Shown here: piece after piece, positions 9,481 through 41,322 of the stretch
Position numbering within the stretch: position 1 is the first letter of the stretch
How the letters are laid out: every line of letters begins with the position of its first letter
Origin: an uncultured Holophagales bacterium
GTDB lineage: Bacteria; Acidobacteriota; Thermoanaerobaculia; Multivoradales; UBA5704
Direction: 5' to 3'
DNA length: 64,000 nt
NCBI GenBank assembly: GCA_963842525.1
Contig: CAWJGT010000009.1
Span: 256,001 to 320,000, forward strand
Made by a program: the position numbers and the translations under genes
Notes under the pieces: model-generated
Told to the model about the DNA's origin: nothing
What the model saw: only the letters and a program-made list of their open reading frames with translations
Database searches by the model: none

Positions 9481-9501
9481 CGGGGTCAAGCCCCGCCCTA
9501 C
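9481..9501 (-). repeat. GTAG-type REP
   Basis: Reverse strand reads GTAGGGCGGGGCTTGACCCCG. Confidence 0.6.
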
Positions 9502-9651
9502 TTCGAAATCCGTCACACAAAGTTAGCGCGTACGGGGTGGAGGGGGTGAGAGACCTCGGCAGACACCTCGCGGACGCTTTTGAGACCGCCTCTGGGAAAG
9601 GGGGAAATTCCGGCCTTGCACCGGCACACGAGTCCGAGGTACGATTTCAAC

Positions 9652-10215: not shown

Positions 10216-10291
10216 CCCCTTCGCCCAACAGCCCCGATGCCGGGCAGGTCAACTGATATGATCCCGCCCGGTGCCTGGGAGGTGACCGACG

Positions 10292-18968: not shown

Positions 18969-21152
18969 TTATCGGACGTCCACGTCCTCGACAACCACCT
19001 CCTGCAGCGTCCGTTTGAAAAACTCTTCCATGCGCGCATAGAAGTGGGTGAGGGCAGGAGGGTTGACGGCGTGCTTCTGGCCCGGATAGAAGCCCTGCTC
19101 GAAGGGGATGCCGGCTTTTACCAGGGCGTCGGTCAACAGGATCGTGTTCTGCGGGTGGACGTTGTCGTCCGCCAGACCATGAATGAGCAGGAGCCGGTCC
19201 TTGATCCGGTCGGCATAGGTGAGGGGGGACGATTCGAGGTAGCCCGATTCGTTGTCCTGCGGGGTGTCGAGGTAGCGTTCGGTCCAGATCGAGTCGTAGA
19301 GGTGCCAGTCGGTCACCGGCGCGCCCGCGACGCCGGCTTTCCAGACGCCGGGGCGATGGATCAGGCAATACAGGGTGTTGTAGCCGCCGCCGGACCAGCC
19401 CCAGAGGCCGATCCGCGCGGGGTCGACCCAGGGGAGGCTCTTGAGGTAGTCGACCCCGGCGAGCTGGCCGGCGAGGTTGACCTCGCCCATCCGGCGGTAG
19501 TCCAGATCCTCCCCCTTCTTGCCGAAGAAGGTCGAGGCCTGGTTGTCGACGCTGAAGACCACGAAGCCGCGCTGAGCCATCCGCTTGTGCCAAAGGTCGC
19601 GCCGGCGGGTGTCCGGCTTGTCGGCCACGACCTGGGAGCCGGGGCCGCCGTAGTGGTAGACGATCACGGGGTAGCGGCGCGACGGATCGAACCCCTGCGG
19701 CTTGAGGAGCCGGGCGGGCAGGCGCGCGCCGCCGGGCCCGGGAATGGTCAGGTACTCCCAGTGCGGCAGGCTCGCCGGGTCGTATCTGGACGGCGGCACC
19801 CAGGGCAGGGGCACCGCGCTGCCGTCGGCCCGCCGCACCTCCAACCGGCCCGGGAGGTCTGCGCTGGTCCAGGTATGGACCCAGGCGCCGGTCGGAGCCA
19901 CCGGCTGTGCCTCATGGGTGCCCTTCCCTTGCGTGAGGCTCTCCCAACGGTCCTCCCCGAGCCGGGCGCGCAGGACATGGCGCTCGGCGGGGCCCAGGCC
20001 CTGGGTCCGGAAGGCCGTGAGGATCACCTCGCCGCCGTCCCCGGCCAGGCCGCCGAGCCCGGTGACGGCCCAGCCTTCGGGGGAGACCTGACGCAGCAGG
20101 CGGCCGTCGGCGCCGTAGAAGTAGAGCGCCCGCCAGCCGCTCCGTTCGGAGCCCCAGAGGAACCGGCCGTCGGGGAGGAAGAGGAGGTCGTTCGCCAGGT
20201 TCACCCAGGTCGGCCAGCTCTCAGTGGCGAGGGGCGAGCAGCGGCCGTCCGTGGCGGCGCAGCGGAGGAGGTCGAGCCGGGTCTGGCTGCGCGTGAGCGC
20301 CTGGATGGCCAGGGCGTCTCCGGCGGGCGTCCAGGCCACCCGCGCCAGGTATTGGTCCTGGTCGCCGGTCGACATCCAGGTGGTCCGGCCGCTGGCGAGG
20401 TCGAGCACTCCGACGCGCACCCTGGGATTGGGATCGCCCGGCTTGGGGAATTTCTGCCAGTTGACCTTCGGATGGAGCGGCGATTCGTCGACCAGGGGGT
20501 GGACGGGGACGTCGCGCTCGTCGAACTCGTAGTAGGCGATCCGCCGGCTGTCGGGGCTCCACCAGAAGCCGGTGGCTTCGCGGTCCCAGATCTCCTCCCA
20601 ATAGACCCAATCGGTCGTGCCGTTCAGGGTCAGGTTCTTTGCGCCGCCTTCGGTGAGGCGCCGCACCTGGCGTGTTCCGAGGTCCATCAGATAAAGGTCA
20701 TACTCGCGCACGAAGGCGACCTGCGTGCCGTCGGGCGAGAGCTTCGGGTCCTCCTCGGCCTCGGCGGTCTCGGTCAGCCGCCGGAGCCGGCGGTCGGCCA
20801 GCGGGAAGAGGAAGAGGTCGCCGCTCGACTCCAGCAGCAGCGCGTCTCCCTGGGGGGACCAGGCGTAGCCGTCGAGCGTGGCCTCCGCGCCCGCGGCCTT
20901 GGCAAGATCGGCCAGGGACAGCAGGGCCTCGCTCTGGCCCGTGGCGGGGTCGAGGGCCTGGAGGGCCTCACCGCGGCCGTCGTCCCAGAGGTAGGTGAGC
21001 CGCCGGCCGTCCGGCGACCAGGCAATCTGGCCGGGAGAGCGGCCTGCCCAGTCGGCAGAGGCGATCGCGTCGTAGGAGAGCGCGGCTTGGCCAGCGCCCG
21101 CGGCGGGGACGAGGAGACCGAGCAAGAGCGGGAGAAGGAGGGCGGAACGCAT
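18969..21152 (-). CDS. S9B dipeptidyl-peptidase IV family protein
   Basis: Signal peptide, DWVYWEE, GLWGWSGGG, HGLADDNVH. Confidence 0.93.
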   Translation of the reverse strand: MRSALLLPLLLGLLVPAAGAGQAALSYDAIASADWAGRSPGQIAWSPDGRRLTYLWDDGRGEALQALDPATGQSEALLSLADLAKAAGAEATLDGYAWSPQGDALLLESSGDLFLFPLADRRLRRLTETAEAEEDPKLSPDGTQVAFVREYDLYLMDLGTRQVRRLTEGGAKNLTLNGTTDWVYWEEIWDREATGFWWSPDSRRIAYYEFDERDVPVHPLVDESPLHPKVNWQKFPKPGDPNPRVRVGVLDLASGRTTWMSTGDQDQYLARVAWTPAGDALAIQALTRSQTRLDLLRCAATDGRCSPLATESWPTWVNLANDLLFLPDGRFLWGSERSGWRALYFYGADGRLLRQVSPEGWAVTGLGGLAGDGGEVILTAFRTQGLGPAERHVLRARLGEDRWESLTQGKGTHEAQPVAPTGAWVHTWTSADLPGRLEVRRADGSAVPLPWVPPSRYDPASLPHWEYLTIPGPGGARLPARLLKPQGFDPSRRYPVIVYHYGGPGSQVVADKPDTRRRDLWHKRMAQRGFVVFSVDNQASTFFGKKGEDLDYRRMGEVNLAGQLAGVDYLKSLPWVDPARIGLWGWSGGGYNTLYCLIHRPGVWKAGVAGAPVTDWHLYDSIWTERYLDTPQDNESGYLESSPLTYADRIKDRLLLIHGLADDNVHPQNTILLTDALVKAGIPFEQGFYPGQKHAVNPPALTHFYARMEEFFKRTLQEVVVEDVDVR

Positions 21153-21230
21153 GGCGCGGAGTCTACTATTCTGGAGTTGCAACCTTGGCGTTGCAGCGCT
21201 CGTAGTGGGGACACGATGGAGGGACACGCC

Positions 21231-22433
21231 ATGAAACCACAAAGACCTGCCGCGCTGCTCGCGGCTTCGCTGCTCCTGACCGGCGCGCTGGCCGCCGTTG
21301 CCGAGACTCCAACCAAGACGCGGGCCTTGCGCCACGCCTTTCCCGCAAAGACCGCCGAGCTGCGGCTCGCCAACCTGGCCGGCCGGATCGAGCTGGTCCG
21401 CGCGCCGGGAAACCAGGTGGTGGTCGACGCCACGATCCACGCCGCCGGCGACAACGCCCGCGAGACCAAGGAGCTGCTCGACGGCATGAAGTGGGTGCGC
21501 GGCGAGGACCGGGACGGCAACGACGAGTGGGTGCTCTCCTACCCTGTCGACGACTACCGCGGCTTCCACTACCCCCGGCCCGGCAAGGATTCGGACATCC
21601 CCGAATTCCTCCGCTTCCTCGACTTCGGCGGGTACTCCACCACGTTCTATCGCGGCGAGAACGTCCGCATCTACCGGGAGAAGCGCTCGTCGGTTCCCAC
21701 TCTCTACGCCAATCTGCGGATCGCGCTGCCGGCCGGAAGCCACGTCGCGGTGCGCAACGCCGTGGGCGCGGTGCGCGCGGACGGGCCGCTCGAAGGGGAC
21801 CTGCAGGTGAGGACCGGCAGCGGCGACGTCCGGATGGCCGCGTTCTCCGGCCAGTTGGGGGTCCGCACCGGCTCGGGCGACGTCACCATGGGCTCGGTCA
21901 CGGGCGAGAGCTCGATCGCCACCGGCTCGGGCGATGTGGTCGTCCGCAAGATGGTGGGCAACGGCTCGCTGGACACCGGCTCGGGCGACGTTACAGTCGA
22001 GAGCGTCTCGGCCGGCAAGCTGGCGGTGGACACCGGCTCGGGCGACGTGGTGGTGCGCAACGGCACGACCGGCCGGCTGCTGGCCAAGACCGGCTCGGGC
22101 AGCGTGCAACTGCTCGGCGTGGAGGTCCAGGAGCTGGACGCCAAGACCGGCTCGGGTGACGTGGTCCTCCGCAGCTCGCTCGCCCAGGCCAAAGAGGTGG
22201 TCGCCCGCACGGGCAGCGGCGACATCGAAATCTTCGCGGGCCCGCAGGCCTCGTTTGACATCACATCGTCCCAGGGGAGCGGCGACCTCGAGGTGGGCTA
22301 TCGGGACGCCAACCTGCGCCGCTCCTCGTCGGGCCGCAAGGTCATCGGTGCCAAGCGCGGCGACGGCCGCACGGTGATCCGCCTCCAGACCGGCAGCGGG
22401 GACTGCGTGATCACCCCGCGGCAGTCCTCCTAA
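21231..22433 (+). CDS. Secreted DUF4097 beta-strand-repeat protein
   Basis: Signal peptide; recurring TGSGDV motif. Confidence 0.88.
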   Translation: MKPQRPAALLAASLLLTGALAAVAETPTKTRALRHAFPAKTAELRLANLAGRIELVRAPGNQVVVDATIHAAGDNARETKELLDGMKWVRGEDRDGNDEWVLSYPVDDYRGFHYPRPGKDSDIPEFLRFLDFGGYSTTFYRGENVRIYREKRSSVPTLYANLRIALPAGSHVAVRNAVGAVRADGPLEGDLQVRTGSGDVRMAAFSGQLGVRTGSGDVTMGSVTGESSIATGSGDVVVRKMVGNGSLDTGSGDVTVESVSAGKLAVDTGSGDVVVRNGTTGRLLAKTGSGSVQLLGVEVQELDAKTGSGDVVLRSSLAQAKEVVARTGSGDIEIFAGPQASFDITSSQGSGDLEVGYRDANLRRSSSGRKVIGAKRGDGRTVIRLQTGSGDCVITPRQSS

Positions 22434-22473
22434 ACCTCGAACTGATCTGCTGTTGTCTCGTCTCTTCGTTCCG

Positions 22474-22500
22474 GCCCCCTTTGGCGAGGGGGCTTTTTTT
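22474..22500 (+). terminator. Intrinsic terminator
   Basis: gccccct-ttggcg-agggggc followed by a T-run. Confidence 0.85.
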
Positions 22501-22702
22501 CCTCACCCCCTGTCCCCCTCTCCCATCGCCCCACCCCCGGCCGGGAGAGGGGGGACGTCGCTGGGGCTGAAAGGCGAGGTCGAGGCTCTCTGGTGAGGGA
22601 GCCCCTGAAGAGGCTCTGCAAGCGATCCCCTCAGAGCATCAACTACGTCCCCCCTCTCCCGGGGGAAGGTGGGGCGACGGGAGAGGGGGACAGGGGGTGA
22701 GG
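22501..22702. repeat. REP-like family A inverted doublet
   Basis: cctcaccccc...gggagagggggg (22501-22555) and inverted copy (22648-22702) between convergent genes. Confidence 0.85.
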
Positions 22703-22704
22703 TT

Positions 22705-24387
22705 TTACATCTTGCTGTAGTTCGGCCCGCCGCCGCCCTCGGGGGGGACCCAGGTGATGATCCCGTACGGGTCCATGATGTCGCAGGTTTTGCAGTGCAC
22801 GCAGTTGCTGGCGTTGATCTGCAGCCGCTGGCCCGTGGGCGAGGCCGGCTCGGGCACCATCTCGTAGACCGAGGCCGGGCAGAAGCGCTGGCAGGGGTTG
22901 GCGTATTCGACCGCGCACTGGTAGATGCAGATGTCGGTGTCCGCGACCAGCAGGTGGACCGGCTGGTCCTCCTCGTGCGCGGTCCCCGAGTTGTAGACGT
23001 CCGCCAGCTTGTCGAAGGTGAGCACGCCGTCGGGCTTGACCGGCTCGGGCGGCTTGAGCTTCTGTCCTTCGGGGCTGTTCAGCCGGACCATCCGCTCGTG
23101 GCCGGGCCGGGTCTGCAGGCGGTCGAGGGCTCCCCAGCCGCGGCCGTTCGTCACCAGGCCGAGGCCCGCCTGGACCATGCCGGCCGCGACCCCGTGGTCG
23201 AAGGCCTGGTGGAAGTTGCGCACCTGCCAGAGCTCGTCCTTGATCCAGCTCTCGTCGATCTTCTGCTCGAAGCGGGACAACCGCTCGGCCGTGGCGCCGC
23301 CGGCCACCAGCGCCTCGAAGATCGTCTCGGCGGCGAGCATCCCGGACTTCATGCCGAGGTGGATTCCCTTGAGGCGCTGGCTGTTGAGCGTCCCCGCCGA
23401 GTCGCCGATGATCAGGAAGCCGTCGCCCCAGGAGCGCGGCATCGCCCACCAGCCGCCCTCGGGGATCGCCTTGGCGCCATAGAACGCCATCCGTCCGCCT
23501 TCGAGGAGGCTGCGGATCTCGGGATGGGTCTTGAAGCGCTGGAATTCCTGGTGCGGGTCGAGCAGCGGGTTGCGGTAGTCCAGGCCGACGACCAGGCCGA
23601 CGACGAGCTGGTCATTCTGCATGCCGTAGAGGAAGCCGCCGCCGAAGATGTGCATGTCGAGCGGCCAGCCCATGGTGTGGATCACGTCGCCCGCCGCGAT
23701 CCGTCCCGGCGGGAGGTCCCAGACCTCCTTGATGCCGATCGAGTAGACCTGCGGGTTCTTCCCCTCCCAGAGGCCCAGGTCCGCGTCGAGCTGCTTGACC
23801 AGGGTGCCGCGGGGACCTTCGCCGAGCACCACCACCTGCGAGCGGATGTCGACCCCCGGCTCGTAGTTGGCCTTCTTCTCGCCGGTATGCGAGATGCCGC
23901 GGTCCGCGGTGCGGACGCCGACCACCCGGCCGTTCTCGACCAGCGCGCGGGAGGCGGGAAACTCGTAGAAGATGTCGACCCCCAGCTCCTCGACCCGCGG
24001 GACCATCCACTTGAGGAGCTTGCCGAGCGAGGCGACGTAGTTGCCCTCGTTCTCGAGCGGCGGCGGGATGGGCATGCCGAAGGCCCGTTTGCCGGTGAGG
24101 AACAGGAGCTTCTCGTGCTCGACCTTGCCCTCGTACGGAGCGTTGCGCCAGTCGTCGGGGAACAGCTCGCGGAGGGCGCGCGGGTCCACCACGGCGCCGG
24201 AGAGGGCGTGGCTGCCGATCTCGCGGCCCTTCTCCAGGACCCCGATCGAGACCTCCAGCTTCGCGGCGGATTTTGCATTGTGATCGCGGATTAGGCGCGC
24301 GAGGTGATAGGCCCCGGCCAGGCTGGCCGGTCCGGCGCCGACGAAGAGGACATCGATGTCCAGAGTTTCGCGTTCCTGGTCGCTCAT
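22705..24387 (-). CDS. Electron transfer flavoprotein-quinone oxidoreductase
   Basis: VGAGPA FAD motif, LKGIHLGMKSG, CPASVYE and NCVHCKTCD Fe-S motifs. Confidence 0.93.
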   Translation of the reverse strand: MSDQERETLDIDVLFVGAGPASLAGAYHLARLIRDHNAKSAAKLEVSIGVLEKGREIGSHALSGAVVDPRALRELFPDDWRNAPYEGKVEHEKLLFLTGKRAFGMPIPPPLENEGNYVASLGKLLKWMVPRVEELGVDIFYEFPASRALVENGRVVGVRTADRGISHTGEKKANYEPGVDIRSQVVVLGEGPRGTLVKQLDADLGLWEGKNPQVYSIGIKEVWDLPPGRIAAGDVIHTMGWPLDMHIFGGGFLYGMQNDQLVVGLVVGLDYRNPLLDPHQEFQRFKTHPEIRSLLEGGRMAFYGAKAIPEGGWWAMPRSWGDGFLIIGDSAGTLNSQRLKGIHLGMKSGMLAAETIFEALVAGGATAERLSRFEQKIDESWIKDELWQVRNFHQAFDHGVAAGMVQAGLGLVTNGRGWGALDRLQTRPGHERMVRLNSPEGQKLKPPEPVKPDGVLTFDKLADVYNSGTAHEEDQPVHLLVADTDICIYQCAVEYANPCQRFCPASVYEMVPEPASPTGQRLQINASNCVHCKTCDIMDPYGIITWVPPEGGGGPNYSKM

Positions 24388-24886
24388 GCGGCTCGGCTCC
24401 TCCCGTTCCTGCATCTCATGTCATCGAGCGCAGGGGATGCTACCATGCGGAAGGCCCGTGCAAGGAATCCGGCCGCGGGTTTCGACCCCGACGGTCAAAA
24501 AGAGGAGCCTTCATGCTCCCTCGCCCGCCTCGATGCACTCGCCGCCACGGCCGGCCTCGTCTGCGGGGCGGAGCAGGGCCTCGATGCCGGCATCCACAAC
24601 CGCTGGCACATCCGGACCTACGCCATGGGAAGCCGCACCGCCGTCCGCGAGGCACCCCTGGCCCGGGATCCTCAGGGCTTCATCGACGAGTGGCTCGCCC
24701 GCAGCCGAACCGCATTTGATAAGCTCGCGCCCTGACTGAGTCGGCACCGCCCTCATAGGATAGTTTCTATTCAGACATGGGCTCATACTGGGAGTATCGG
24801 AATGTCTTCGACAAACGTCGGCTCCAAGCCGAATCTCACGCCGACTGAGAAAACTGTCCTCAGGGTCATGTCAGAAGCTCCAGGAG

Positions 24887-26686
24887 ATGTTCGGCGAGCT
24901 CGTCATCAACGAGCAAAGGAGTGAGCTGGTTCGAGAGCTGGATTCTGCGATCCTGCGATCCACCTTCTCGCCGCAGGAAGTCTTTGAGCTTATCATTGAG
25001 AATTGCTTGTCCCGTACAGACTCGCAGCATGGGCAGGTGCTTCTATACAAGCACAATCGCCTGGTGGTGGCTGCGAGCTCGGAGCCGAGCCGTATCGGCG
25101 AGGAGCTGTTTCTCCATAACTCTTTGTGCGGCAAGGCCATCCGCGAGAGATCCGATCAACACTATCCGGACGTTTCCGTGATACCACCGAGCTCTTACGC
25201 TCGGTATCACGACGAGACAAAAAGCGAGCTCGTCGTCCTTATCCAGCCAGCCAACGTAGGCAGGGTCCTCGGTGTGCTGGCTTTGGAGCGCGAAGCGCTC
25301 GGTCCATTCCCAGCAACGGCGCGCGACTTCGCCAAGCTCCTTGCTGGCCAGGCAGCCATTGCCATCCAGCATGCCCGCACGTGGTCCGGCGTAAAGACCC
25401 TATATGACCTCAGCACCGCGCTGGTTGCAGGTACTGTGGAGCTTGAGCAGAGTGGTCAGGAAATCCTCAATGCTCTGCTGGACAACTTCGACTTTGAATA
25501 CGGCCAGATTCTAGGCTTCGAGAGTAATGAGTTTGTTATCATCGCGAGCAGCCGTAGGGGCGACATTGGACTTCGTCCTGGCCGGGACTCGTCACTGTGC
25601 GGCCACTATCTATTAGCCGAGGGTAAGCGGGATATCTTGGTCATCAATGATATTGAGCGGTCGGAGTACAAAGATCTTTACCTGGCTCTGCTCGGGGCGG
25701 AGGGCGAACGTATGAAGAGCGAGATGATCATACCGCTCGTCGACAATTCGGGTCGACTCACAGGGGCGTTGAACATTGAAAGCCCTCAGGTCGGGATTTT
25801 CTCAGATTTTGATGTAAGTTTGTTCGGCGTGGTCGGACACCTTTTGGCCGCTGCAATCTCGGCCACGTTTGCCCGTCGTAAACGAGCGAAAGAGGAGCAA
25901 ATAAAGAGGGCGGATCTAGCTATGACGCACCTCGGCAATGTCGCCCAGTCGTTTCTTCATCGATTTGGCAGTAGCGTTGGCGACGCTAAAGGGCGGATGC
26001 TCGAGCTCAGGCAGCATTTGGAAGGGCGAGATTTGCCGAAATTGCGACGAAAAGAGCTCAGCGTGGTTGATTTCATAGGCGACATCGTGGAGAGCCTCGG
26101 CGAGGCCAAGGTGGTGGTGGATGACTTCAGCAACCGGTTCGATCCACAATTGGTCGACTTCCAGTTCCAGGACATCGATCTCGCGGCGGTCGGTAGAGAG
26201 CTCTTGGAGAAGTACCAGCAAAGGTATGCCGATACTGGGATCGAATTTCGTTTCGATGACCAGATGCCGTCAGTCGACAAAAATGGCCGGATGAGTGTCG
26301 GCAGCCGTGCTGTGTGTCGGTTGACTGAGAAGGTATACGACGTTATCGAAAATCTTTTGGATAATGCCGTGCGAGCCGTGGTGGAGCGGCCTGCGGTGGA
26401 CAGGCCCGGCGAGATCGCCATAATCCTCTCCCTCAGCGCTGCCCTCAGCGCGCGCCTGCGGGTGCAAGACAACGGAGTCGGTATCGACGCGGCAGAGCGG
26501 CGAAAGATTTTCGAGTTCGGTTACAGCACTCGCAAGAGCGGAGGCACTTCGCTTGGTATAGGACTTTGGTTCTGCGAGTACTACACTCTTCAGCTCGGAG
26601 GGAAGATCACCTTCGATTCGGAGAGAGGGTCAGGTTCGTGGTTCGAGATCGAGTTCCCTACGATTGCCATAGAGGCTGAAGCCTGA
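24887..26686 (+). CDS. Soluble GAF-GAF histidine kinase (may start at 24802 if an indel is present)
   Basis: Two GAF repeats (SLCG...SEL/SEM...GVL/GALN.E), H-box FLHRFGS, ENLLDNA, DNGVGI, FEFGYST, GIGLW. Confidence 0.88.
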   Translation: MFGELVINEQRSELVRELDSAILRSTFSPQEVFELIIENCLSRTDSQHGQVLLYKHNRLVVAASSEPSRIGEELFLHNSLCGKAIRERSDQHYPDVSVIPPSSYARYHDETKSELVVLIQPANVGRVLGVLALEREALGPFPATARDFAKLLAGQAAIAIQHARTWSGVKTLYDLSTALVAGTVELEQSGQEILNALLDNFDFEYGQILGFESNEFVIIASSRRGDIGLRPGRDSSLCGHYLLAEGKRDILVINDIERSEYKDLYLALLGAEGERMKSEMIIPLVDNSGRLTGALNIESPQVGIFSDFDVSLFGVVGHLLAAAISATFARRKRAKEEQIKRADLAMTHLGNVAQSFLHRFGSSVGDAKGRMLELRQHLEGRDLPKLRRKELSVVDFIGDIVESLGEAKVVVDDFSNRFDPQLVDFQFQDIDLAAVGRELLEKYQQRYADTGIEFRFDDQMPSVDKNGRMSVGSRAVCRLTEKVYDVIENLLDNAVRAVVERPAVDRPGEIAIILSLSAALSARLRVQDNGVGIDAAERRKIFEFGYSTRKSGGTSLGIGLWFCEYYTLQLGGKITFDSERGSGSWFEIEFPTIAIEAEA

Positions 26687-26703
26687 GGCACAGGAGGAAG
26701 AGC

Positions 26704-27519
26704 ATGAAGGCGCGCATTCTTGTGGTCGAAGACGAGGAGCGGTGGCTGGAGAACTTCCAGGAGTGGATACCGGAGGATCTGGCTTCCCAGGACTCCGCTT
26801 CATCCTCGATCGAGGCTGCCAGGCTGCTGCGCAGGTTTCATTACGACCTTGTGCTGCTCGATTTGTCGATGGACGTTACCAATATCTCCAATCGGGATAC
26901 CCGTCCGATTCAGGAGTATCTTGCACGGCGGCCCGAGGGGACGCTGTACATTGTGATCTCGGCAACAGCGCAGAAGCACGACGTTCGTGACGCGGCGTTC
27001 AGGCTTGGGGCATGGGACGTCATCTTCAAAACTGAAGCTGAGCCGGCTGTTCTCAGGGAGAGGGTGGCGGCAGCGGTGGCAGACACTGGTCGACATCATG
27101 AGCAATGGATCATCGAGGCCAGGACAAAGTTGATCAAGGATCACGTGCATGACGGCCAGATCCTCAGCGCTCTGCAGCCACGTGGGGGAGCATCCAGCAT
27201 GTACGGCCTCATGGATGCCCTGTTTCGCGCCATCGCTCCGATCGGACAGCATCGCGACAGGCTGCACTTCGCCGTCACAGGCCAATGCGTGTGCGGTCTG
27301 GTATGGAGCCGCCTTCGGGGGGCAGCGGTTTCCTTCGTCCTTGCGAATCGCAGCATAGAGGAAGAGGCCGCGCTGGCAGAGCTCGCGGACTGGATGGGGT
27401 TTGCGGAGCGGGGCGAGCGCCTGATCTCTCGAGAGCTGCACCGAGTTCGTATATGGGGATTCGAGGAGACGAGCATCACGGATTCCCACTTCGACCTTCC
27501 TGACATCCGGGTCGCTTGA
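26704..27519 (+). CDS. Response regulator with unrecognised C-terminal domain
   Basis: ILVVEDE, VLLDLSM, ISAT, IFK receiver residues; RBS aggagg. Confidence 0.85.
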   Translation: MKARILVVEDEERWLENFQEWIPEDLASQDSASSSIEAARLLRRFHYDLVLLDLSMDVTNISNRDTRPIQEYLARRPEGTLYIVISATAQKHDVRDAAFRLGAWDVIFKTEAEPAVLRERVAAAVADTGRHHEQWIIEARTKLIKDHVHDGQILSALQPRGGASSMYGLMDALFRAIAPIGQHRDRLHFAVTGQCVCGLVWSRLRGAAVSFVLANRSIEEEAALAELADWMGFAERGERLISRELHRVRIWGFEETSITDSHFDLPDIRVA

Positions 27520-28637
27520 GTGGCACGATGGAGTTGCCGATCGACCTGATCCGTGCGTTCAAGCTGGTAGGCGGTGAGGGTGTGGTGGCTTTCGTTGGAT
27601 CTGGCCCCTCGTGCGATGCCGGCGTCCCGAATTGGTCGGATCTGATCCGGTGCGTCGCAGTTGACGTCGGTCTCGATGCCGAGATCTCTCCATATTTGTC
27701 GACGGGGCGCCTGCTGGAAGCGGCACAGTTTCTCAGTCGCTCGAGGTCGGAGGAGGACATCCAGGAGAGGGTAGCGAAGGAGATTCAACGGACCGCCCGG
27801 CCGGGACGTGTCCACGAGCTCATCGTTGGCGCGCCCTTTTCGGGCATCGTGACCACAAATTACGACTTGCTGCTGAGCATGGCCGATCGAGCTCGAAAGT
27901 TTGACGTTCCGACGACCCATCAGAGCGTCACCGTTCGCGACCACCTTCATCGCCCATTCGTTCTCCATCTCCATGGGCATGTGAATGAGCCAAGGACGAT
28001 CGTGCTCAGTCGTAGCGGCTATGACCAGATCGTCGCCCCGGCAGGAGCGCCAGCCCGGCAGTTCTTGTATAGCACCCTGGGATCGTTTACGCTGCTCTTT
28101 ATCGGATTCGGGTTTCGAGACCCAAATATCGACGCCATCCTCAGGGAGGGCAGCGAGTTGAGCACAATCGGCGGGTCTAGCGTCTTTGCTCTAGTGCCGT
28201 CGGGCCCGAAGATTGATCATGTGCTCGATGCCAACCTAAGAACGAGGAAAGTCAATCCAATCTATATCGAAGATCGGGGCGATCACGGCACGCAAGCACT
28301 TTGCGAGTGGCTGGAAAGCCTGACACGGGCAGTCGAGAGGGTCACCTTGTCGCGTCAGTCGCCGGTGCGGAACGCCAAGCCGGCCGAGTTGCTGCAGAGG
28401 ATTCAGTCGCTGTTGCAATCAGGTGACTGGAGGCTTGTCCTCGCGAAGGCTGTGGCGGAACTGGAAAACCGCCCGGATTTGCAGAATCTTGCGCGCAAGG
28501 GATTCACCAATGAAGACATCCCAAGATTGTTCGATCAGATGTCGATCGGCGAGACACGGAGGATTTTGATGTCAGTGAATCGAGAGCGCAGGAATGAGGT
28601 GGTGGAGGATGCCCTCTCCTGCTTTCCGCCCGGGTGA
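27516..28637 (+). CDS. SIR2-like (defence-type) protein with C-terminal helical domain
   Basis: FVGSGPS..AGVPNW, IVTTNYD, LHLHG, LLFIGFGFRDPNI; overlaps RR stop. Confidence 0.9.
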   Translation: MSGTMELPIDLIRAFKLVGGEGVVAFVGSGPSCDAGVPNWSDLIRCVAVDVGLDAEISPYLSTGRLLEAAQFLSRSRSEEDIQERVAKEIQRTARPGRVHELIVGAPFSGIVTTNYDLLLSMADRARKFDVPTTHQSVTVRDHLHRPFVLHLHGHVNEPRTIVLSRSGYDQIVAPAGAPARQFLYSTLGSFTLLFIGFGFRDPNIDAILREGSELSTIGGSSVFALVPSGPKIDHVLDANLRTRKVNPIYIEDRGDHGTQALCEWLESLTRAVERVTLSRQSPVRNAKPAELLQRIQSLLQSGDWRLVLAKAVAELENRPDLQNLARKGFTNEDIPRLFDQMSIGETRRILMSVNRERRNEVVEDALSCFPPG

Positions 28638-28836
28638 GGTCCAGCGGGACAGGTCCCAGATCCTCTGCGGAGCGCTCGACACTGCGGCGAGCTTGGCGCT
28701 TCCCCACGCTCGCCGGCCCGAGGGATTCCTCGACCAAGGGCTCGCTCTCCCCTGGGACGAGACGGTCCGCTGGTCCGACCCACGCGCAGTGACCGGATTT
28801 GGAAAAAGAGTGGCGCCCTCATAGGATAGCGGCGCC

Positions 28837-29802
28837 ATGAATGAACGCATCCTTGTCACAGGAGCCCTTGGACAGATCGGGTCCGAGCTGGTCGCGGCCC
28901 TTCGGCAGCGCTACGGTGCCGAGCAGGTCGTGGCCTCGGACGTGCGGATGCCACCGGCCGTGCGGTGGAAGCCCGAGGACGGTCCCTTCGAGTTCGTCGA
29001 CTGCACCAACCAGCGGCAGATCCAGGAGGCGGTGCGCCACTATGGCGTCCGCACCATCTACCACATGGCAGCGCTCCTCTCGGCGGTGGCCGAGGAGCGG
29101 CCGCAGGTGGCATGGGACGTCAACATGGGGGGGCTCTACCGTGTTCTGGAGGTGGCACGCCAGACGCGCTGCGCCGTCTTCTTCCCCAGCTCGATTGGCG
29201 CCTTCGGCCCCACGACTCCGCCCGACCACACACCCCAGGACACCATCCAGCGCCCGACGACCATGTATGGCGTCACCAAAGTGACGGGTGAGTTGTTGTG
29301 CGATTACTATCATTTGCGCTTCGGCGTCGACACCCGGGGTCTGCGCTTCCCGGGCCTGATCTCCCACGGCGTGCCTCCCGGCGGTGGCACCACCGACTAT
29401 GCCGTCGAGATCTTCTACGAGGCCATCCGCCACCGCCACTACACCTGCTTCCTGCGCCGCAACACCCGTCTCGACATGATGTACATGCCCGACGCCGTCA
29501 AGGCCCTGGTCGATCTGATGGAGGCCGATCCGGACCGCCTGAAGCATCGCAATGCCTTCAACGTGACGGCGATGAACTTCACACCCGAAGAGCTCGCCGC
29601 CGAGATCCGCAAGCACATCCCGGACTTCGTGCTCGACTACCGCGTCGATCCGGTGCGGCAGGCGATCGCGGACTCCTGGCCCGACAGCCTCGACGACTCG
29701 GCGGCCCGCGAGGAGTGGGGCTGGAACCCGGCCTACGACCTCGCCGCCATGACCCGCGACATGCTGGAGAACCTGAGTCGGAAGCTCACGGTCGAAGCCT
29801 AG
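28837..29802 (+). CDS. tdh: SDR-type L-threonine 3-dehydrogenase
   Basis: GALGQIGSEL, AALLSA, YGVTK, PGGGTTDYAV; adjacent to kbl. Confidence 0.88.
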   Translation: MNERILVTGALGQIGSELVAALRQRYGAEQVVASDVRMPPAVRWKPEDGPFEFVDCTNQRQIQEAVRHYGVRTIYHMAALLSAVAEERPQVAWDVNMGGLYRVLEVARQTRCAVFFPSSIGAFGPTTPPDHTPQDTIQRPTTMYGVTKVTGELLCDYYHLRFGVDTRGLRFPGLISHGVPPGGGTTDYAVEIFYEAIRHRHYTCFLRRNTRLDMMYMPDAVKALVDLMEADPDRLKHRNAFNVTAMNFTPEELAAEIRKHIPDFVLDYRVDPVRQAIADSWPDSLDDSAAREEWGWNPAYDLAAMTRDMLENLSRKLTVEA

Positions 29803-29834
29803 ACCGGTCGACCTTTTCACGGAGAACCGCCGCG

Positions 29835-31070
29835 ATGCCGATCGATCGCCTCACCACCGCCCTGGCCGCCGATCTCGACGACCGCCGCAGCCGCGGCATC
29901 CTCAAGGGGGACGAGGCGGTCATCACCCGGGTCCTGTCCGCGAGCGGCGAGCATGGGCCCCGCTATCTGCTGGAGGGGCAAGGCGACAAGCCCTTCCTCA
30001 AGATGAACTCGAACGGCTACCTCGGCATGGCCCTGCGACTCGAGGTGATCGAGGCGGAGGAGGAAGCCTGCCGCGCCTTCGGCACCGGTCCGGGTGCGGT
30101 GCGTTTCATCAGCGGCACCTACAGCACCCACATCGAGCTCGAGCGGCGCCTGGCCGCCTTCCACGGCCGTGAGGCGGCGATGCTGTTCAGCTCCGCCTAT
30201 GCCACCGTGGTCGGCATTCTGGTCCCTCTCATCACCGCCGAAACGGCGTTGGTCTCCGACGAGCTGAACCACAACTGCATCATCAATGCCATGCGCCTCG
30301 CCCGGCCCAAGGAGAAGTACATCTACAAGCACGTCGACATGGGCGATCTGGACGCCAAGCTGGCGCAGGCGGCCGAGTCCGGTGCCCGCCGGGCCATTGT
30401 GGTGACCGACGGCATCTTCTCCATGCGGGGTGCCCATGCCCCCATGCCGAAGATCGTGGAGATCGCCCGCCGCTACGACGACCGTTTTCCCGAGAACGTC
30501 CTGGTGATCATGGATGACTCGCACGGCGTCGGCGCTGTCGGGCGCACCGGCCGCGGTACCGAGGAGCTCACGGGCGCTTCGGGGATCGACCTCCTGGTGG
30601 CCACCCTCGGCAAGGCGCTGGGGGTCAACGGCGGCTATGTGGCCACCAGCCGTCTGATCGTCGAGTTCCTGCGCGAGTCTTCGCCGTTCTACATCTATTC
30701 GAACCCGATAACTCCGGCCGAGGCAGCAGCGGCCACGAAGGCGCTGGAAGTCCTCGACAGCCCGCAGGGCCGCGAGATCCTCGACCACCAGCGGGCCATG
30801 ACCTCGCGCTTCCGGCAGGGTCTGATCGATCTGGGCTTCGAGACCCTCCAGGGCGAGCACCCGGTGGTGCCCCTCTTCGTGCGCGACACGCCGAAGACCG
30901 CCGCCCTGGTCCGCCACCTCAAGGAGAACGGCATTCTCGCCACCGGCCTCAACTTCCCCGTCGTGCCCAAGGGAGACGAGTCCATCCGTTTCCAGGTCTC
31001 GGCCGACCATACGGCGGCGGATATCGACTTCGTGCTGCGGACGCTCGCGGAGTTCCCGGGGCGGGGGTAG
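29835..31070 (+). CDS. kbl: 2-amino-3-ketobutyrate CoA ligase
   Basis: GAVRFISGT, SDELNHNCII, DDSHG, TLGKALG, FPVVPKG. Confidence 0.85.
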   Translation: MPIDRLTTALAADLDDRRSRGILKGDEAVITRVLSASGEHGPRYLLEGQGDKPFLKMNSNGYLGMALRLEVIEAEEEACRAFGTGPGAVRFISGTYSTHIELERRLAAFHGREAAMLFSSAYATVVGILVPLITAETALVSDELNHNCIINAMRLARPKEKYIYKHVDMGDLDAKLAQAAESGARRAIVVTDGIFSMRGAHAPMPKIVEIARRYDDRFPENVLVIMDDSHGVGAVGRTGRGTEELTGASGIDLLVATLGKALGVNGGYVATSRLIVEFLRESSPFYIYSNPITPAEAAAATKALEVLDSPQGREILDHQRAMTSRFRQGLIDLGFETLQGEHPVVPLFVRDTPKTAALVRHLKENGILATGLNFPVVPKGDESIRFQVSADHTAADIDFVLRTLAEFPGRG

Positions 31071-31111
31071 GTCTCGTGGACCCGAAAGGGACCACGCTAT
31101 GCTCTCGCCGG

Positions 31112-31585
31112 ATGAGCGAGAGGCGTCAGCCCAACCTGTATGTCCTGGCCGGCCCGAACGGCGCCGGCAAGAGCACCTTCGCGCGCCTCTTCCTGCCGGA
31201 CTATGCGGACTGCAAGGAGCTCGTCAACGCGGACCTGATCGCTGCCGGCCTGTCTCCGTTCAACCCGGAGAGCCTGGCCCTCCAGGCGGGCCGGCTCATG
31301 CTGGAACGGATCGAGGCTCTCGCGAAGGCGGGAGAGGATTTCGGCTTCGAGACGACCCTGGCGGGGCGGAGCTGGCTGCCTCTCCTGCATCGCCTGCGGC
31401 GGCTCGGTTATCGCCTGCACCTCTTCTTTCTCTGGCTTCCGACTCCGGAGCTGGCAATCGACCGCGTGCAGGAGAGGGTACGGTCCGGCGGCCATTCGAT
31501 CCCCGACGAGGTCGTCCGCCGGCGCTTCGGCCGCGGGCTTCCGGATCTCCTCCAGAGGATCGAAAGAGAGGGGAAGGGAGGATGA
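31112..31585 (+). CDS. Zeta-toxin-like P-loop ATPase (C-terminus appears shortened)
   Basis: AGPNGAGKST, VNADLIA, FETTLAG, RVRSGGHSIP. Confidence 0.8.
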   Translation: MSERRQPNLYVLAGPNGAGKSTFARLFLPDYADCKELVNADLIAAGLSPFNPESLALQAGRLMLERIEALAKAGEDFGFETTLAGRSWLPLLHRLRRLGYRLHLFFLWLPTPELAIDRVQERVRSGGHSIPDEVVRRRFGRGLPDLLQRIEREGKGG

Positions 31586-31794: not shown

Positions 31795-32660
31795 GCCTTC
31801 CTAGCGAGGTCCTCCGGCTGCTGAGTTGCCCGGCTTGTGGAGGGCAGCTCTCCGATGCCGAGTCCGGGCTGGCCTGCCTGGGGCCCTCCAGACACATCTT
31901 TCCGCTCGAAGACGGCTTCCTCACCTTCGCCAAGCCGCCTGTGGGCAAGTACGATCCCGCCTATGCGGCGCGGTACGCGGCTCTCTGGGCCTTCGGATAC
32001 GAGACGCTCCACAGCGGTTTCGACGAATCCCTCTACCGCTCGGTTTCTTCTCTTGCTGCCGAGGCGCTGGCCTCTGCGCCGCGAGAAGGCCCGCGATCGA
32101 TCGTCGACTGCGGCTGCGGCGTGGGAAGGGTGGCGGCGGACTGCGCGGCCCTGGCTCCCGATGGCGTCGTCCTGGGCGTGGATGGCTCGCTCGCCATGCT
32201 CGAGCTGGCAGAACGGATCGTCCACGGCCGCGAGCCCGTGGCTGTGGACCTCTCCGCTTACGGCTTCGGGACTCTCACCATCCCGGCCCGGACACGGGAG
32301 AACGTCCACTTCTTCCGCGCCGACGTGGAGGATCTCCCTGTCGCCGACGGCTGCGCGGACCTCGCTCTGAGCATCAACATCATCGACCGCCTTCCCCACG
32401 GCCCGGACCGTGCCTTCGCCGAGTGCCACCGCATCCTCCGGCCGGGAGGCCATCTGCTCTTCGTCAATCCGCTAAACTGGACGGAAGGAGCGCTGTGGGA
32501 GCAGTACGGCCGGGGGGAAGCGATCGTTCGTCTCCTGGAAGGGCACGGCTTTCGCATCGAAACCTGGTTCGACGGCCTTGCCTACCGGGAGATCCTTGAC
32601 CGCCGGGGCTCGTTCGAAGAGTTCACCACCCTGGTGGTGCTCGCCCGCAAAGGCCGGTGA
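31791..32660 (+). CDS. Class I SAM methyltransferase with N-terminal Trm112-like Zn module
   Basis: LSCPACGG; VDCGCGVG; RILRPGG. Confidence 0.85.
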   Translation: MSLPSEVLRLLSCPACGGQLSDAESGLACLGPSRHIFPLEDGFLTFAKPPVGKYDPAYAARYAALWAFGYETLHSGFDESLYRSVSSLAAEALASAPREGPRSIVDCGCGVGRVAADCAALAPDGVVLGVDGSLAMLELAERIVHGREPVAVDLSAYGFGTLTIPARTRENVHFFRADVEDLPVADGCADLALSINIIDRLPHGPDRAFAECHRILRPGGHLLFVNPLNWTEGALWEQYGRGEAIVRLLEGHGFRIETWFDGLAYREILDRRGSFEEFTTLVVLARKGR

Positions 32661-32743
32661 TACGATGGGGATGTTTCGCGAAGCCGCGAATCCAACCCGC
32701 CGGGTGGTGCCGTAGAGAGAGTTACATGGCAGGGAGGTGCGAC

Positions 32744-33760
32744 ATGGTCCCGGAGGTCCAATCGATCCCGACAGAGCGGCTCCAGATCCGCGAGATCGGG
32801 TCCGGGCGCGCCGCGGCGAGCTTCGCCGAGGATGTACGCCGCGGCCTGACGTCGTCCCCCAAGGTTCTGTTTCCCAAGTACTTCTATGACGCGCTGGGAT
32901 CGAAGCTCTTCGAGGCGATCTGCGAGCTGCCCGAGTACTACGTCACCCGGGCCGAGACGGAGGTCTTCCTCGCGCACGCCCGGGAAATCGCCGGCGCGCT
33001 CGGCAGTCCGGTGCGGATGATCGAGCTGGGGAGCGGCGACGGCCGGAAGACCCGCCTCCTGATCGAGGCGCTGCTCGACCGCCAGGGCGGGCTCGATTAC
33101 GTGCCGATCGACATCTCCCGGCCGGCCATCGAGGAGAGCGGCGAAAAGCTCCTCTTCGCCTATCCTGAGCTGCGGATCGAGGCTTGGGTGGGCGAGTTCG
33201 TCCCCACCTTGCGCGCTCTCGCCCGGAAGGCGCCTGCGCCCGTAGGGACCCGCACGCTGGCGCTCTTCCTCGGCTCGACGCTGGGCAACCTCGAGCCGGA
33301 CGAACGGACCGGCCTCCTGGGCGCCGTCCGCGACCTGCTGCGTCCCGGAGACGGCTTCCTCGTGGGGGTCGACCTCCGGAAGCCGGCGAGCGTCCTGGTG
33401 CCGGCGTACGACGACGCCCTGGGGGTGACCGCGGCGTTCAACCTCAACCTCCTCGGGCGCATCAACCGCGAGCTGGGCGGCGGCTTCGACCTCACCGCCT
33501 TCCGGCACCGGGCGCGCTGGAACGACGAGCTGAGCCGTATCGAGATGCACCTGGAGAGCCTCCGAGACCAGGCTGTGCCCATCCGCGGCCTCGGCCTGGA
33601 GGTCTCCTTTGCGACGGGAGAGACGATCCACACCGAGAGCTCGTACAAGTTCGAGACCGCGCAGATCGAACGGCTGGCGGCGGCAACCGGCTTCGAGCTG
33701 CGCCGGGCCTGGACGGACGGGGAGCGGCGCTTCGGCTCCCACCTGCTTGTGGCAAGATGA
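32744..33760 (+). CDS. egtD: L-histidine N(alpha)-methyltransferase
   Basis: PKYFYD..GS.LFE.I..LPEYY.TR.E, ELGSG, AYDDALGVTAAFNLN, IHTESSYKF. Confidence 0.92.
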   Translation: MVPEVQSIPTERLQIREIGSGRAAASFAEDVRRGLTSSPKVLFPKYFYDALGSKLFEAICELPEYYVTRAETEVFLAHAREIAGALGSPVRMIELGSGDGRKTRLLIEALLDRQGGLDYVPIDISRPAIEESGEKLLFAYPELRIEAWVGEFVPTLRALARKAPAPVGTRTLALFLGSTLGNLEPDERTGLLGAVRDLLRPGDGFLVGVDLRKPASVLVPAYDDALGVTAAFNLNLLGRINRELGGGFDLTAFRHRARWNDELSRIEMHLESLRDQAVPIRGLGLEVSFATGETIHTESSYKFETAQIERLAAATGFELRRAWTDGERRFGSHLLVAR

Positions 33761-33822: not shown

Positions 33823-33901
33823 GCCGGTGTAGCTCAGCCCGGTTTAGAGCGCCTGACTGTGGATCAGGAGGTCATGGGTTCAAATCCCATCGCCGGTACC
33901 A
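33823..33901 (+). tRNA. tRNA-His(GTG), G1-U72, A73, encoded CCA
   Basis: Cloverleaf: GCCGGTG/CGCCGGT, GCTC/GAGC, CCTGA-CTGTGGA-TCAGG, ATGGG-TTCAAAT-CCCAT, then A-CCA. Confidence 0.97.
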
Positions 33902-33946: not shown

Positions 33947-35383
33947 ATGGCTGTCGAGCCCCGCCTGTCCCGTGGCCTGCGTGATCTTCTGTCGGACCAG
34001 ATGCTGGCCCGGCAGTGGATGATCGACACGATCCGGGATGTCTACGAGCTGTACGGCTTCGTGCCCCTGGGAACCCCGGCCATCGAGTACCTGGATGTGC
34101 TGCTCGGCTCCTCGGCCGGCGCCGAAGCCCAGCAGTCGATCTTCACCGTCCAGAATCCCGAGAAAGAGGAGCTGGGGCTCCGTTTCGACCTCACGGTCCC
34201 GCTCGCCCGGGTTGTCGCCCAGTACAAGGATCTGCCGCGGCCGTTCCGCCGCTACCAGGTCTCGCCGGTCTGGCGCGGGGACAAGCCGGGGCCGGGCCGT
34301 TTCCGCGAGTTCACCCAGTTCGACCTCGACTCGGTCGGCGTCGAGTCCGAAGTCGCCGACACCGAGATCGTCGCCGGGATGTGCGACACCCTGAGCGCGC
34401 TGCGGGTGGGCCCCTTCCGGGTGCGCTTCTCCAGCCGCGGCATCTTGAACGTCCTGCTCGCCTATGGCGGCATTGCGGCCGATCAGGGGACCGACGTTTT
34501 CCGCGTGCTCGACAAGCTGGACAAGGTAGGCCTGGAGAAGGTCCGCAAGGAGCTGACCGTCGGCTATGTGGACTCGTCCGGCGACGAGATCCGCGGCGTC
34601 GGCCTGACGGATGCGCAGGTGGACAAGATCGAGCGTTTCCTCCAGATCCGTTCGGACGACCGCCGCGAGGTCGTTGCCGAGCTGCGCAGCCTCTTCGCCG
34701 GGGTCGAGGGGGCTGATCGCGAGATCGGCACCGTGAACCGGATCTCCAGCCATCTCTACACACTGGGCTACGGCGAGGACCAGGTCTCTCTCGACCTCTC
34801 GGTCGCCCGCGGCTTGGCCTACTACACCGGGCCGGTCTTCGAGGCGATCCTGCTCGACGCGCCGCAGTTCGGCTCGGTCTTCGGCGGTGGACGTTACGAC
34901 GACCTGGTAATGCGCTTCCTGGGCGAAAAGGTGCCGGCGACCGGCGCCTCGATCGGTGTCGACCGGTTGCTCGCCGCCCTCATCCACCTCGGCCGCGCGG
35001 GGCAGCAGCAGTGCACGGCCAAGATCCTGGTCACCAACATGGACGCCGCCCTGACGGACGACTACCTCGCCATGACCTGGGAGCTGCGGCGGGCGGGCAT
35101 CCCGACCGAGCTCTACCTCGGCTCGGCCAAGGGGGTCGGCAAGCAGCTCAAGTACGCCGACGCCTGGGGAGTGCCGATCGCGCTGCTCTACGGCTCGAAC
35201 GAGAAGGAGCGGGGCGTGGTCACGCTCAAGGACATGGACGTCGGGCGGCAGCGTGCCAAGGCGCTGGAGGACCGCCGGGAGTGGCTCGAAGAGCGGCCCG
35301 GCCAGCGCGAGGTTCCGCGCGCCGAGCTGGTCGCCGCTGTCCGCGAAATGCTGGCCCAGGTCGAAAAGGGATCGGGCTGGTGA
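33947..35383 (+). CDS. hisS: Histidyl-tRNA synthetase (alphaproteobacterial-type)
   Basis: LRFDLTVPLAR, GRFREFTQFDLD, ARGLAYYTG, GGGRYDDL; DSSGD..G.GL insert and EW...RPGQ tail. Confidence 0.95.
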   Translation: MAVEPRLSRGLRDLLSDQMLARQWMIDTIRDVYELYGFVPLGTPAIEYLDVLLGSSAGAEAQQSIFTVQNPEKEELGLRFDLTVPLARVVAQYKDLPRPFRRYQVSPVWRGDKPGPGRFREFTQFDLDSVGVESEVADTEIVAGMCDTLSALRVGPFRVRFSSRGILNVLLAYGGIAADQGTDVFRVLDKLDKVGLEKVRKELTVGYVDSSGDEIRGVGLTDAQVDKIERFLQIRSDDRREVVAELRSLFAGVEGADREIGTVNRISSHLYTLGYGEDQVSLDLSVARGLAYYTGPVFEAILLDAPQFGSVFGGGRYDDLVMRFLGEKVPATGASIGVDRLLAALIHLGRAGQQQCTAKILVTNMDAALTDDYLAMTWELRRAGIPTELYLGSAKGVGKQLKYADAWGVPIALLYGSNEKERGVVTLKDMDVGRQRAKALEDRREWLEERPGQREVPRAELVAAVREMLAQVEKGSGW

Positions 35384-41167: not shown

Positions 41168-41322
41168 CCTCACCCCCGGCCCCTCTCCCATCTCCCACCC
41201 GCCCCTTCCCCGGGAGAGGGGAGAAATTCAAGAGGAAACAGCTCGAAGCATTTTTTAGTCTTCGTTCCCCCTCTCCCGGCGTGGGGTGGTAGGGAGATGG
41301 GAGAGGGGGCCAGGGGGTGAGG
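41168..41322. repeat. REP-like family A inverted doublet filling the hisG-hisD gap
   Basis: cctcacccccggcccctctccc...gggagagggg and inverted copy ending gggggtgagg. Confidence 0.85.

Follow-up and report, generated by a model that had tools for sequence, protein, structure and literature searches.

What does a compact, low-GC block of three genes do when it sits between housekeeping genes in the genome of an uncultured Holophagales bacterium? The block lies in a 64-kb stretch of contig CAWJGT010000009.1, which we call the window and analyzed at its full length; all coordinates below are positions within it, and the genome of origin is 9.95 Mb. In order, the genes encode a sensor histidine kinase with tandem GAF domains, a receiver protein and a SIR2 protein. 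A first-pass annotation of the bare letters and open reading frames (ORFs) had sketched a scheme in which cytoplasmic sensing leads to His-Asp transfer and then to control of an NAD+-degrading enzyme (NADase). Our analysis favors, with a probability of about 0.6, a phosphorelay-gated abortive-infection system of the Detocs kind, in which the putative NADase is recruited in trans. The three computational checks proposed alongside the earlier scheme (no full PADLOC match, recurrence of the trio and a predicted receiver-SIR2 complex) all came out in its favor, whereas defense, NADase activity and phosphotransfer are steps that we infer. To our knowledge, Detocs is the only defensive two-component system characterized so far. 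That the three genes form a conserved, physically coupled module we hold to be very probable, and a role in anti-phage abortive infection is probable.

The three ORFs lie on the + strand at 24887-26686 (599 amino acids, aa), 26704-27519 (271 aa) and 27516-28637 (373 aa from a TTG start). They are co-oriented and closely packed, as the first-pass annotation had it, and the 17 nucleotides (nt) between kinase and receiver, a gap that it also reported, contain GGAGGAAG. It further described an overlapping stop and start at the receiver-SIR2 boundary. The TTG at 27516 does overlap the receiver stop, but the two genes are more probably separated by 8 nt, because ATG 27528 is the start in the database gene call (P0023, 369 aa) and in most of 38 aligned homologues. 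GC content is 0.54-0.61 across the island vs 0.66-0.70 in its flanks, and no other part of the 64 kb is as low. The claim that its codons end in A or T more often than those of the flanks is borne out by GC at third codon positions, which is 0.66, 0.70 and 0.69 in the kinase, receiver and SIR2 genes vs 0.94 in ETF-QO, 0.88 in tdh and 0.90 in kbl. Annotation of the flanks likewise agrees with the placement of the island between ETF-QO and tdh-kbl. Only the proposed island start, 24780, had to be moved: it falls in the upstream non-coding part, and the island proper spans 24764-28813.

If the first gene encodes a sensor kinase, then it should carry the landmarks of that class. The protein matches the Pfam domains GAF_2 at residues 28-161 (nt 24968-25369), GAF at 186-324 (nt 25442-25858) and HATPase_c at 482-591 (nt 26330-26659; E 6.5e-18). 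A region resembling the helices of dimerization and histidine phosphotransfer domains carries an invariant His358 (nt 25958-25960), which we take by inference to be the phospho-acceptor; no HisKA-type Pfam model matched the kinase. Together with the three homologues described below, it gives a set of four kinases that align end to end at 34-50% identity, and in all four loci H358, N493, D528/G530/G532 and G557/G559 are invariant. The protein has both the HATPase_c domain with its N, G1 and G2 boxes and the conserved His in a helical region that mark a two-component histidine kinase. NCBIfam returned only generic kinase and receiver matches for the first two proteins of the island. A hydrophobicity scan found no N-terminal transmembrane segment, in agreement with the earlier reading; the top hydrophobic 19-mer (residues 310-328, Kyte-Doolittle score 1.84) lies inside the GAF-2 envelope. 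As to what the GAF domains might bind, a cyclic nucleotide would be just one candidate, to which the present data lend no support, because GAF domains in immune regulators can also join in the binding of single-stranded DNA and proteins, according to a report on CapP/IrrE (PMC13228613).

The second protein begins with a Response_reg domain at residues 5-118 (nt 26716-27057; E 1e-10, above the cut-off), and its model aligns to known receivers (4kfc, Z 18.3, root-mean-square deviation (rmsd) 2.0, 123 residues aligned). D10, D53, S86 and K109 are invariant in all 19 sequences of the family, the phospho-acceptor Asp53 corresponding to nt 26860-26862, so that the acidic pocket, acceptor Asp, Ser/Thr and Lys of a receiver (REC) domain are all in place. 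Of the D/T/K set previously read in this protein, D10, D53 and K109 stand, but the T position is occupied by Ser86. Pfam is blank beyond residue 118, which fits the remark that the protein lacks a recognizable DNA-binding output.

What follows the receiver domain is harder to classify. In the model of the whole protein (predicted local distance difference test, pLDDT, 90.7), a long helix (114-143) leads from REC to a compact alpha/beta domain at ~145-271 (nt 27136-27516), and this C-terminal domain modeled on its own reaches pLDDT 92.1. Structure searches with the whole model gave receiver domains only. With the lone domain, Foldseek found nothing at E <= 0.001 (best 0.092), and an ESM Atlas search with residues 135-271 gave no usable match. 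The rows returned by VIA-align were mostly N-lobes of protein or aminoglycoside kinases, the best being the TkArkI N-lobe (Z 6.2, rmsd 4.3, 94 aligned), but these rows lie below Z 8, the level that VIA-align treats as meaningful. On the strength of the models, then, the domain appears to have no clear solved relative, and we claim neither a kinase lobe nor a new fold. PADLOC gave weak receiver-level matches only for this protein.

The third protein carries SIR2_2 (PF13289) at residues 111-242 (E 2.4e-22) and no Pfam domain beyond it. Its core spans residues ~9-237 (nt 27540-28226), with Asn115 at nt 27858-27860 and His153 at nt 27972-27974, and a helical C-terminal part ends in a conserved tail at 348-372 (nt 28557-28631, ...EDALSCFPP). 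All 38 homologues share GSGPS, TTNYD (N115, D117), H151/H153 and FIGFGF.D, and the TTNYD, LHG and FIGFGF.DP motifs picked out in the first-pass annotation are found here as the family-invariant TTNYD, LHLHGH and FIGFGFRD. Also invariant in the 38 are a C-terminal RPDL motif, E346/R348 and tail residue L367; the remaining tail residues are highly conserved. Searched against solved structures, the family profile matched ThsA (7uxt, 1.3e-32; 8wc0; 6lhx, 1.2e-26; 8bto), KomC, described as a 'SIR2-domain NADase' (1.8e-24), DSR2 (1.3e-19) and FAM118B. These matches are confined to the first ~237 residues, and none of the 18 solved-structure matches is a classical deacetylase sirtuin. In PADLOC, the protein matches ThsA1 (5.8e-32) over residues 22-209, corresponding to model positions 21-205 of 478. 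The assignment to a defense-type SIR2 subtype is thereby upheld, with a SIR2_2 domain that keeps the catalytic Asn and His and with ThsA, KomC and DSR2 as the closest solved chains, and the protein is best described as a catalytically intact, ThsA-like, putative NADase. It forms a distinct subfamily, because some 48 full-length relatives at E <= 3e-48 are followed by a gap to E 1.5e-34 and 2.4e-14. A search with the C-terminal part (275-373) was uninformative, recovering only the self-match among 124 candidates. In the carrier genome, several of the 20 SIR2_2 matches (loci L115-L122 and others) lie in open frames of ~1200 aa.

If the receiver gates the SIR2 protein directly, then the two should bind. 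We modeled them together, a check that the first-pass annotation had proposed, and three runs gave ipSAE values of 0.84, 0.84 and 0.83, whereas none of the three controls exceeded 0.00. For comparison, 58 of 80 solved complexes attain that mark, as do 2 of 110 mismatched pairs; these counts apply only roughly, since the prediction used our own alignments. At least 97% of contacts are common to the runs, and the partner has a pLDDT of at least 85. The predicted interface sets the SIR2 tail (348-372) and residue 291 against receiver residues 183-186, 190, 192, 199, 208, 229-233, 235 and 255-262, and it contains the invariant receiver residues H183, R186, W230 and G232 as well as SIR2 R348 and L367. 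Conservation is higher at the interface than around it on both sides, at 0.71 vs 0.46 for the rest of 275-373 in SIR2 (1 of 10,000 random subsets as high) and 0.66 vs 0.54 for the rest of the domain in the receiver (200 of 10,000). The complex prediction and the interface conservation together support binding of the SIR2 protein by the receiver.

Recurrence of the trio, another check put forward at the outset, was read at three further full-length loci fetched from genome and metagenome scans: L011, in a Chloroflexi metagenome-assembled genome (MAG); L012, in a Pirellulales MAG; and L030, on a metagenome contig. In all three, a GAF-GAF-HATPase kinase, a receiver and a SIR2_2 protein occur in the same order and tightly packed, and the trio has thus been found in other phyla. 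The receiver family itself is rare and patchily distributed: a search of 5.8 billion proteins yielded 19 full-length members, at 39-66% identity, and none was found in 40 relatives of the carrier. Among viral contigs (44 loci), there was no close relative of the SIR2 protein (best 27% identity), and tblastn gave no match to the receiver C-terminal domain in plasmids and phages.

A profile of that C-terminal domain matched 40 cluster representatives among 1.84 billion proteins, nearly all of them ~270 aa long with the domain at ~140-270. Pfam architecture was examined for eight of the 40, and two of these eight depart from the common plan. P0110 (439 aa) joins REC and the domain to TIR_2 (7.7e-18), and its TIR resembles PADLOC defense models (SAVED-TIR, 1.5e-9; PDC-S66, 5.4e-8); P0121 (501 aa) consists of HATPase_c, REC and the domain. 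Judged from their architectures, these fusions appear to tie together kinase, receiver domain and NADase-type effector.

How did the island come to lie where it does? Its left neighbor is ETF-QO (22705-24414, - strand); to the right are tdh, for an SDR-type threonine dehydrogenase (28837-29802, +), and beyond it kbl, for 2-amino-3-ketobutyrate CoA ligase (~29880-31070, +). The edges of the low-GC stretch coincide exactly with the two copies of a perfect 16-nt direct repeat, CGCCCTCATAGGATAG, at 24748-24763 on the left and 28814-28829 on the right. Shuffled sequence would give 0.01 copies in the window where two are seen, and in the whole 9.95-Mb genome only the two island-flanking copies occur, with up to one mismatch permitted. 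Between the right copy, which contains the -10-like hexamer TAGGAT, and the tdh ATG (28837) there are 7 nt. Sequence resembling CATAGGATAG also precedes tdh in L067 and L060, which belong to two further genera of the same family, and we therefore take the repeat to be a native stretch from upstream of tdh, copied as ~4.05 kb of foreign DNA came in. The left junction is independently attested by a 276-nt contig in an assembly of the soil-metagenome DNA run X1, which holds 0.37 of the sampled words and may be the source sample; the contig covers 24589-24864 with no differences, and the right junction has no cover. No RNA run is listed among the sequencing runs holding the sequence.

Relatives of the carrier place the native neighborhood in context. 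We found tdh in 10 of the 12 relatives searched, and the tdh-kbl pair is kept in all five upstream regions read, from four same-genus genomes and one same-family genome. In these regions, similarity to the window ends at the tdh start and ETF-QO is adjacent in none, so they offer no clean empty-site comparison. A TAnnnT-like hexamer stands ~7-12 nt before the tdh ATG in the window (28814-28836) and in three congeners (L064, L065 and L066), and none of the four has an evident Shine-Dalgarno sequence there, which suggests that the tdh-kbl transcript may be leaderless or near-leaderless. Inside the repeats, the cassette has a non-coding leader upstream of the kinase (24764-24886, + strand), with no consensus promoter above shuffle level, and a non-coding tail (28638-28813), with no + strand terminator-like site and no Rfam match. 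Around the cassette as a whole, promoter-like and terminator-like sites do not exceed shuffled expectation, and no Rfam family was found in 22000-31500. The only tRNA found (His, 33823-33901) is 5 kb from the cassette.

The other loci are bordered by repeats of a different kind. At L011, part of a Schlafen-group-3-type helicase gene stands on either side of the trio, in two ~330-nt copies that are ~88-90% alike; at L012, the two flanking copies are ~220 nt long and take in the 3'-terminal part of a gene for lysine 2,3-aminomutase together with downstream sequence; L030 has no flanking repeat of at least 12 nt within 1.2 kb. The L011 helicase fragments (PF09848, 3.3e-17) are at 5656-5937 and 9960-10355 of that locus, both on the - strand, and the left copy contains an internal 36-nt tandem duplication. 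At three of the four insertions, then, the bordering direct repeats (16, ~220 and ~330 nt) differ widely in length and consist of local, host-specific sequence. None of the four cassettes holds a recombinase or transposase gene, and we saw neither terminal inverted repeats nor end motifs common to them. Insertion could, for instance, have gone through a circular intermediate that recombined by a single crossover. Judged by its sequence and flanks, the island is a horizontally acquired, self-contained mobile three-gene module.

These observations can be assembled into a model. A soluble kinase would sense an intracellular cue, presumably linked to infection, through its tandem GAF domains; with its catalytic motifs intact, it would autophosphorylate on His358 and pass the phosphate to Asp53 of the receiver. 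The receiver's family-specific C-terminal domain is predicted to hold the conserved tail at the C-terminus of the SIR2 protein, a prediction whose controls passed, and phosphorylation would alter the oligomeric or conformational state of the receiver. The docked ThsA-like SIR2 would then switch from idle to active NADase, most likely through the gathering of SIR2 copies. Oligomerization activates other SIR2 NADases. The ensuing depletion of NAD+ would arrest or kill the infected cell, that is, produce abortive infection.

Several observations weigh against a defensive role, and together they sustain a different account, in which the relay would control SIR2 in housekeeping physiology (deacylation, ADP-ribosylation, NAD+ turnover or dormancy) upon binding of a metabolite by the GAF domains, with no link to phage. 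Histidine kinases with GAF domains are commonplace as sensors of metabolism and the environment. PADLOC gave no system-level match for the cassette, and the first-pass annotation had expected no full one: the kinase matches none of its families, the receiver is matched weakly and SIR2 only by the SIR2 part of ThsA. Within 5 kb, the window copy has the housekeeping neighbors ETF-QO, tdh and kbl and no restriction-type gene, and the L030 trio is flanked by MetH and UbiD. A defense-island context, for which it had been suggested to look, is seen at only two of the four loci. At L012, a 201-aa RelA_SpoT-like protein of the small alarmone-synthetase type (6669-7274, +; PADLOC PDC-S33, 1.1e-07) and an MmeI/Eco57I-like type IIG restriction-modification gene (7760-9783, +) lie downstream of the trio, both within 5 kb; at L011, an ORF at 13201-14685 (+) combines IstB_IS21 with a type I restriction enzyme C-terminal domain. 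Restriction-type genes are near two of the three other loci, then, but there is none near the window copy, and L030 sits among housekeeping genes. The carrier genome, moreover, has 20 SIR2_2 (PF13289) matches above the curated cut-off, an unusually high number for a single genome, so SIR2_2 proteins may have roles beyond defense in this lineage. Yet the nearest solved relatives of the SIR2 protein are all of defense or NADase type, with no deacetylase sirtuin among the 18, and the relative P0110 has a defense-like TIR in place of SIR2. Nor do the foreign composition and flanking repeats look like those of a housekeeping regulator. In each of three phyla, 401 genomes were sampled and the receiver family turned up in none but the carrier itself, which also speaks against a housekeeping role, but the scans scored only the top six candidates per genome and this tempers the point. 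We consider the non-defensive account unlikely.

The evidence for the module itself invites similar scrutiny. Here too some points count against our interpretation: the trio was read directly at only four loci (window, L011, L012 and L030), and the ipSAE that links receiver to SIR2 is the model's own confidence. When contigs of equal size were used to pair genes, nine pairs emerged among 18 full-length receiver homologues. Eight are further receiver/SIR2 pairs on equally long contigs, with parallel identities to the window proteins, and are weak evidence; the ninth (P0005 with L012, 9784 nt) was false. The receiver of L012 and P0005, a receiver-family protein from NCBI, share just 45% identity, so equal contig size is an unsafe proxy for co-location. 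One could suppose that the genes are adjacent and functionally unconnected, the receiver acting on some other target while SIR2 merely travels with the pair, and the receiver-SIR2 link is indeed predicted, not biochemical. We regard this as highly improbable, as gene order is identical in all four loci across phyla, the complex prediction passes its controls with an interface on family-invariant residues, and TIR is fused in cis in P0110. A tight predicted complex, gene spacing that suggests translational coupling and a compact mobile cassette with flanking repeats but no recombinase of its own would also suit an addiction module of the toxin-antitoxin type, in which SIR2 is a toxin restrained by the tail-bound receiver, the kinase tunes the pair, and the main effect is stabilization of the cassette, not arrest of phage. 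A 599-aa kinase with two GAF domains, however, kept in all four loci and fused to the receiver in P0121, exceeds what an antitoxin needs, and we think this account improbable. It overlaps with abortive infection in any case, because many abortive-infection systems are toxin-antitoxin-like. Within the abortive-infection model, the direction of the switch could also be the reverse of the one given above: the kinase would be active in healthy cells, and loss of phosphorylation would fire SIR2.

A bolder claim can be built on the abortive-infection model, and we advance it tentatively, at a little less than even odds. The cassette may represent a new class of two-component output, in which a docking module of a fold without clear solved relative captures the tail of a separate NADase and His-Asp transfer triggers immune NAD+ depletion. 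SIR2, in trans, and TIR, in cis, would be interchangeable as effectors. The 4-kb cassette would pass from phylum to phylum although it encodes no recombinase, and its variable target duplications hint at an undescribed insertion route.

Some further features of the window deserve record. Intergenic repeats of ~55 nt at 22501-22553, 22650-22703, 41168-41226 and 43777-43835, with 87-92% identity to sequences of the same-genus L064, L065 and L066, look like a family of elements resembling repetitive extragenic palindromic (REP) sequences. The tRNA-His gene (GTG, 33823-33901) is directly upstream of a histidyl-tRNA synthetase gene (33947-35383), and a gene for a histidine-specific S-adenosylmethionine methyltransferase (Methyltransf_33, 1e-106) at 32657-33760 comes just before it, which puts three histidine-related genes in a row. 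In a 1129-aa ORF at 19044-22433 (+), the sole domain is a C-terminal DUF4097 'toastrack', and codon usage is unusual (GC 0.82 at first and 0.78 at third codon positions); as a 1046-aa ORF on the other strand overlaps with it, the gene model is uncertain.

If the abortive-infection model is right, then phosphorelay gating would extend to SIR2 and TIR NAD+-depleting effectors, could run through a non-covalent adaptor-client pair, and would bring in GAF domains as an infection sensor. With single catalytic residues in each protein and an interface of invariant residues (receiver H183, R186, W230 and G232; the SIR2 tail EDALSCFPP), the model is sharply testable, and the cassette offers a tractable system for asking how a protein partner switches on SIR2 NADases. 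The flanking duplications, for their part, may inform how very small defense cassettes move.

How, then, does the cassette compare with known systems? The first-pass annotation knew of no characterized system with this trio, and our literature search likewise found no description of a kinase-receiver-SIR2 trio, most subscription journals and supplements lying outside its scope; the annotation did, however, leave Detocs, the closest precedent, unmentioned. Thoeris shares the effector core, since ThsA is the closest solved relative of the SIR2 core and the catalytic Asn and His are kept here. The three-gene island has no ThsB TIR gene, though, and its SIR2 lacks a SLOG or Macro domain by Pfam, the PADLOC and PDB matches ending within the SIR2 part; with neither ThsB nor SLOG, we rejected identity with Thoeris. 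Control would also differ, being exerted by a phosphorylated protein partner and not by a TIR-made nucleotide signal as in Thoeris. DSR1/DSR2 identity was rejected as well, at 373 aa vs more than 1000 aa and with weak Dsr matches (8.8e-07 and 4.9e-05) limited to the SIR2 part.

The receiver calls RssB to mind, in which a receiver domain and a long helix likewise lead to a protein-binding domain that does not bind DNA. RssB is the top Foldseek match of the whole receiver model (8twd, 4.8e-08) and the top NCBIfam match (1.2e-11, residues 3-159), but the match spans receiver and linker only, and the C-terminal domain here is not the pseudo-PP2C of RssB. The clients differ too, a putative NADase here and a sigma factor delivered to a protease for RssB. 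We therefore use RssB as an analogy for an adaptor-type receiver, not as a relative of the C-terminal domain. Short prokaryotic Argonaute (pAgo) systems (SPARSA and SPARTA) use SIR2 or TIR as alternative NAD+-consuming effectors on one sensor scaffold, much as SIR2 appears in trans here and TIR in cis in P0110; their sensor, however, is an Argonaute with a guide nucleic acid, not a phosphorelay.

Among systems with a kinase, Ambrosia is a defense operon with a HATPase kinase and a REC protein (10.1101/2025.09.30.679545). As far as the available text of that report goes, its REC protein has a winged helix-turn-helix and is proposed to control restriction-modification-like genes at the level of transcription, and neither a SIR2 nor a docking domain is described (10.1101/2025.09.30.679545). 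Detocs (DtcA/DtcB/DtcC) is, by analogy, the closest precedent in logic. The portion of the Detocs report open to us describes a three-gene operon whose abortive-infection effector, which degrades a metabolite, is under the control of a histidine kinase and a receiver domain; mutagenesis there showed that the relay from histidine kinase to receiver gates the effector, whose domain is exchangeable (10.1101/2023.01.24.525353). The effectors that it names are a PNP ATP nucleosidase and, in the legend to Fig. S8, restriction endonuclease, TOPRIM and transmembrane types, with no SIR2 named there (10.1101/2023.01.24.525353). By the same account, Detocs differs in having a tetratricopeptide-repeat sensor where the present kinase has tandem GAF domains, an effector fused to the receiver (DtcC) where the window, L011, L012 and L030 have a separate SIR2 gene, and a stand-alone buffer receiver (DtcB) where the present cassette has none. 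In PADLOC-DB 2.0.0, a release that may or may not include Detocs models, the receiver gave no Dtc-named match and the kinase matched no family. Measured against these systems, what appears to be new here in a defensive two-component system is a GAF type of sensor, a new adaptor domain, and a SIR2 effector recruited in trans or a TIR effector fused in cis.

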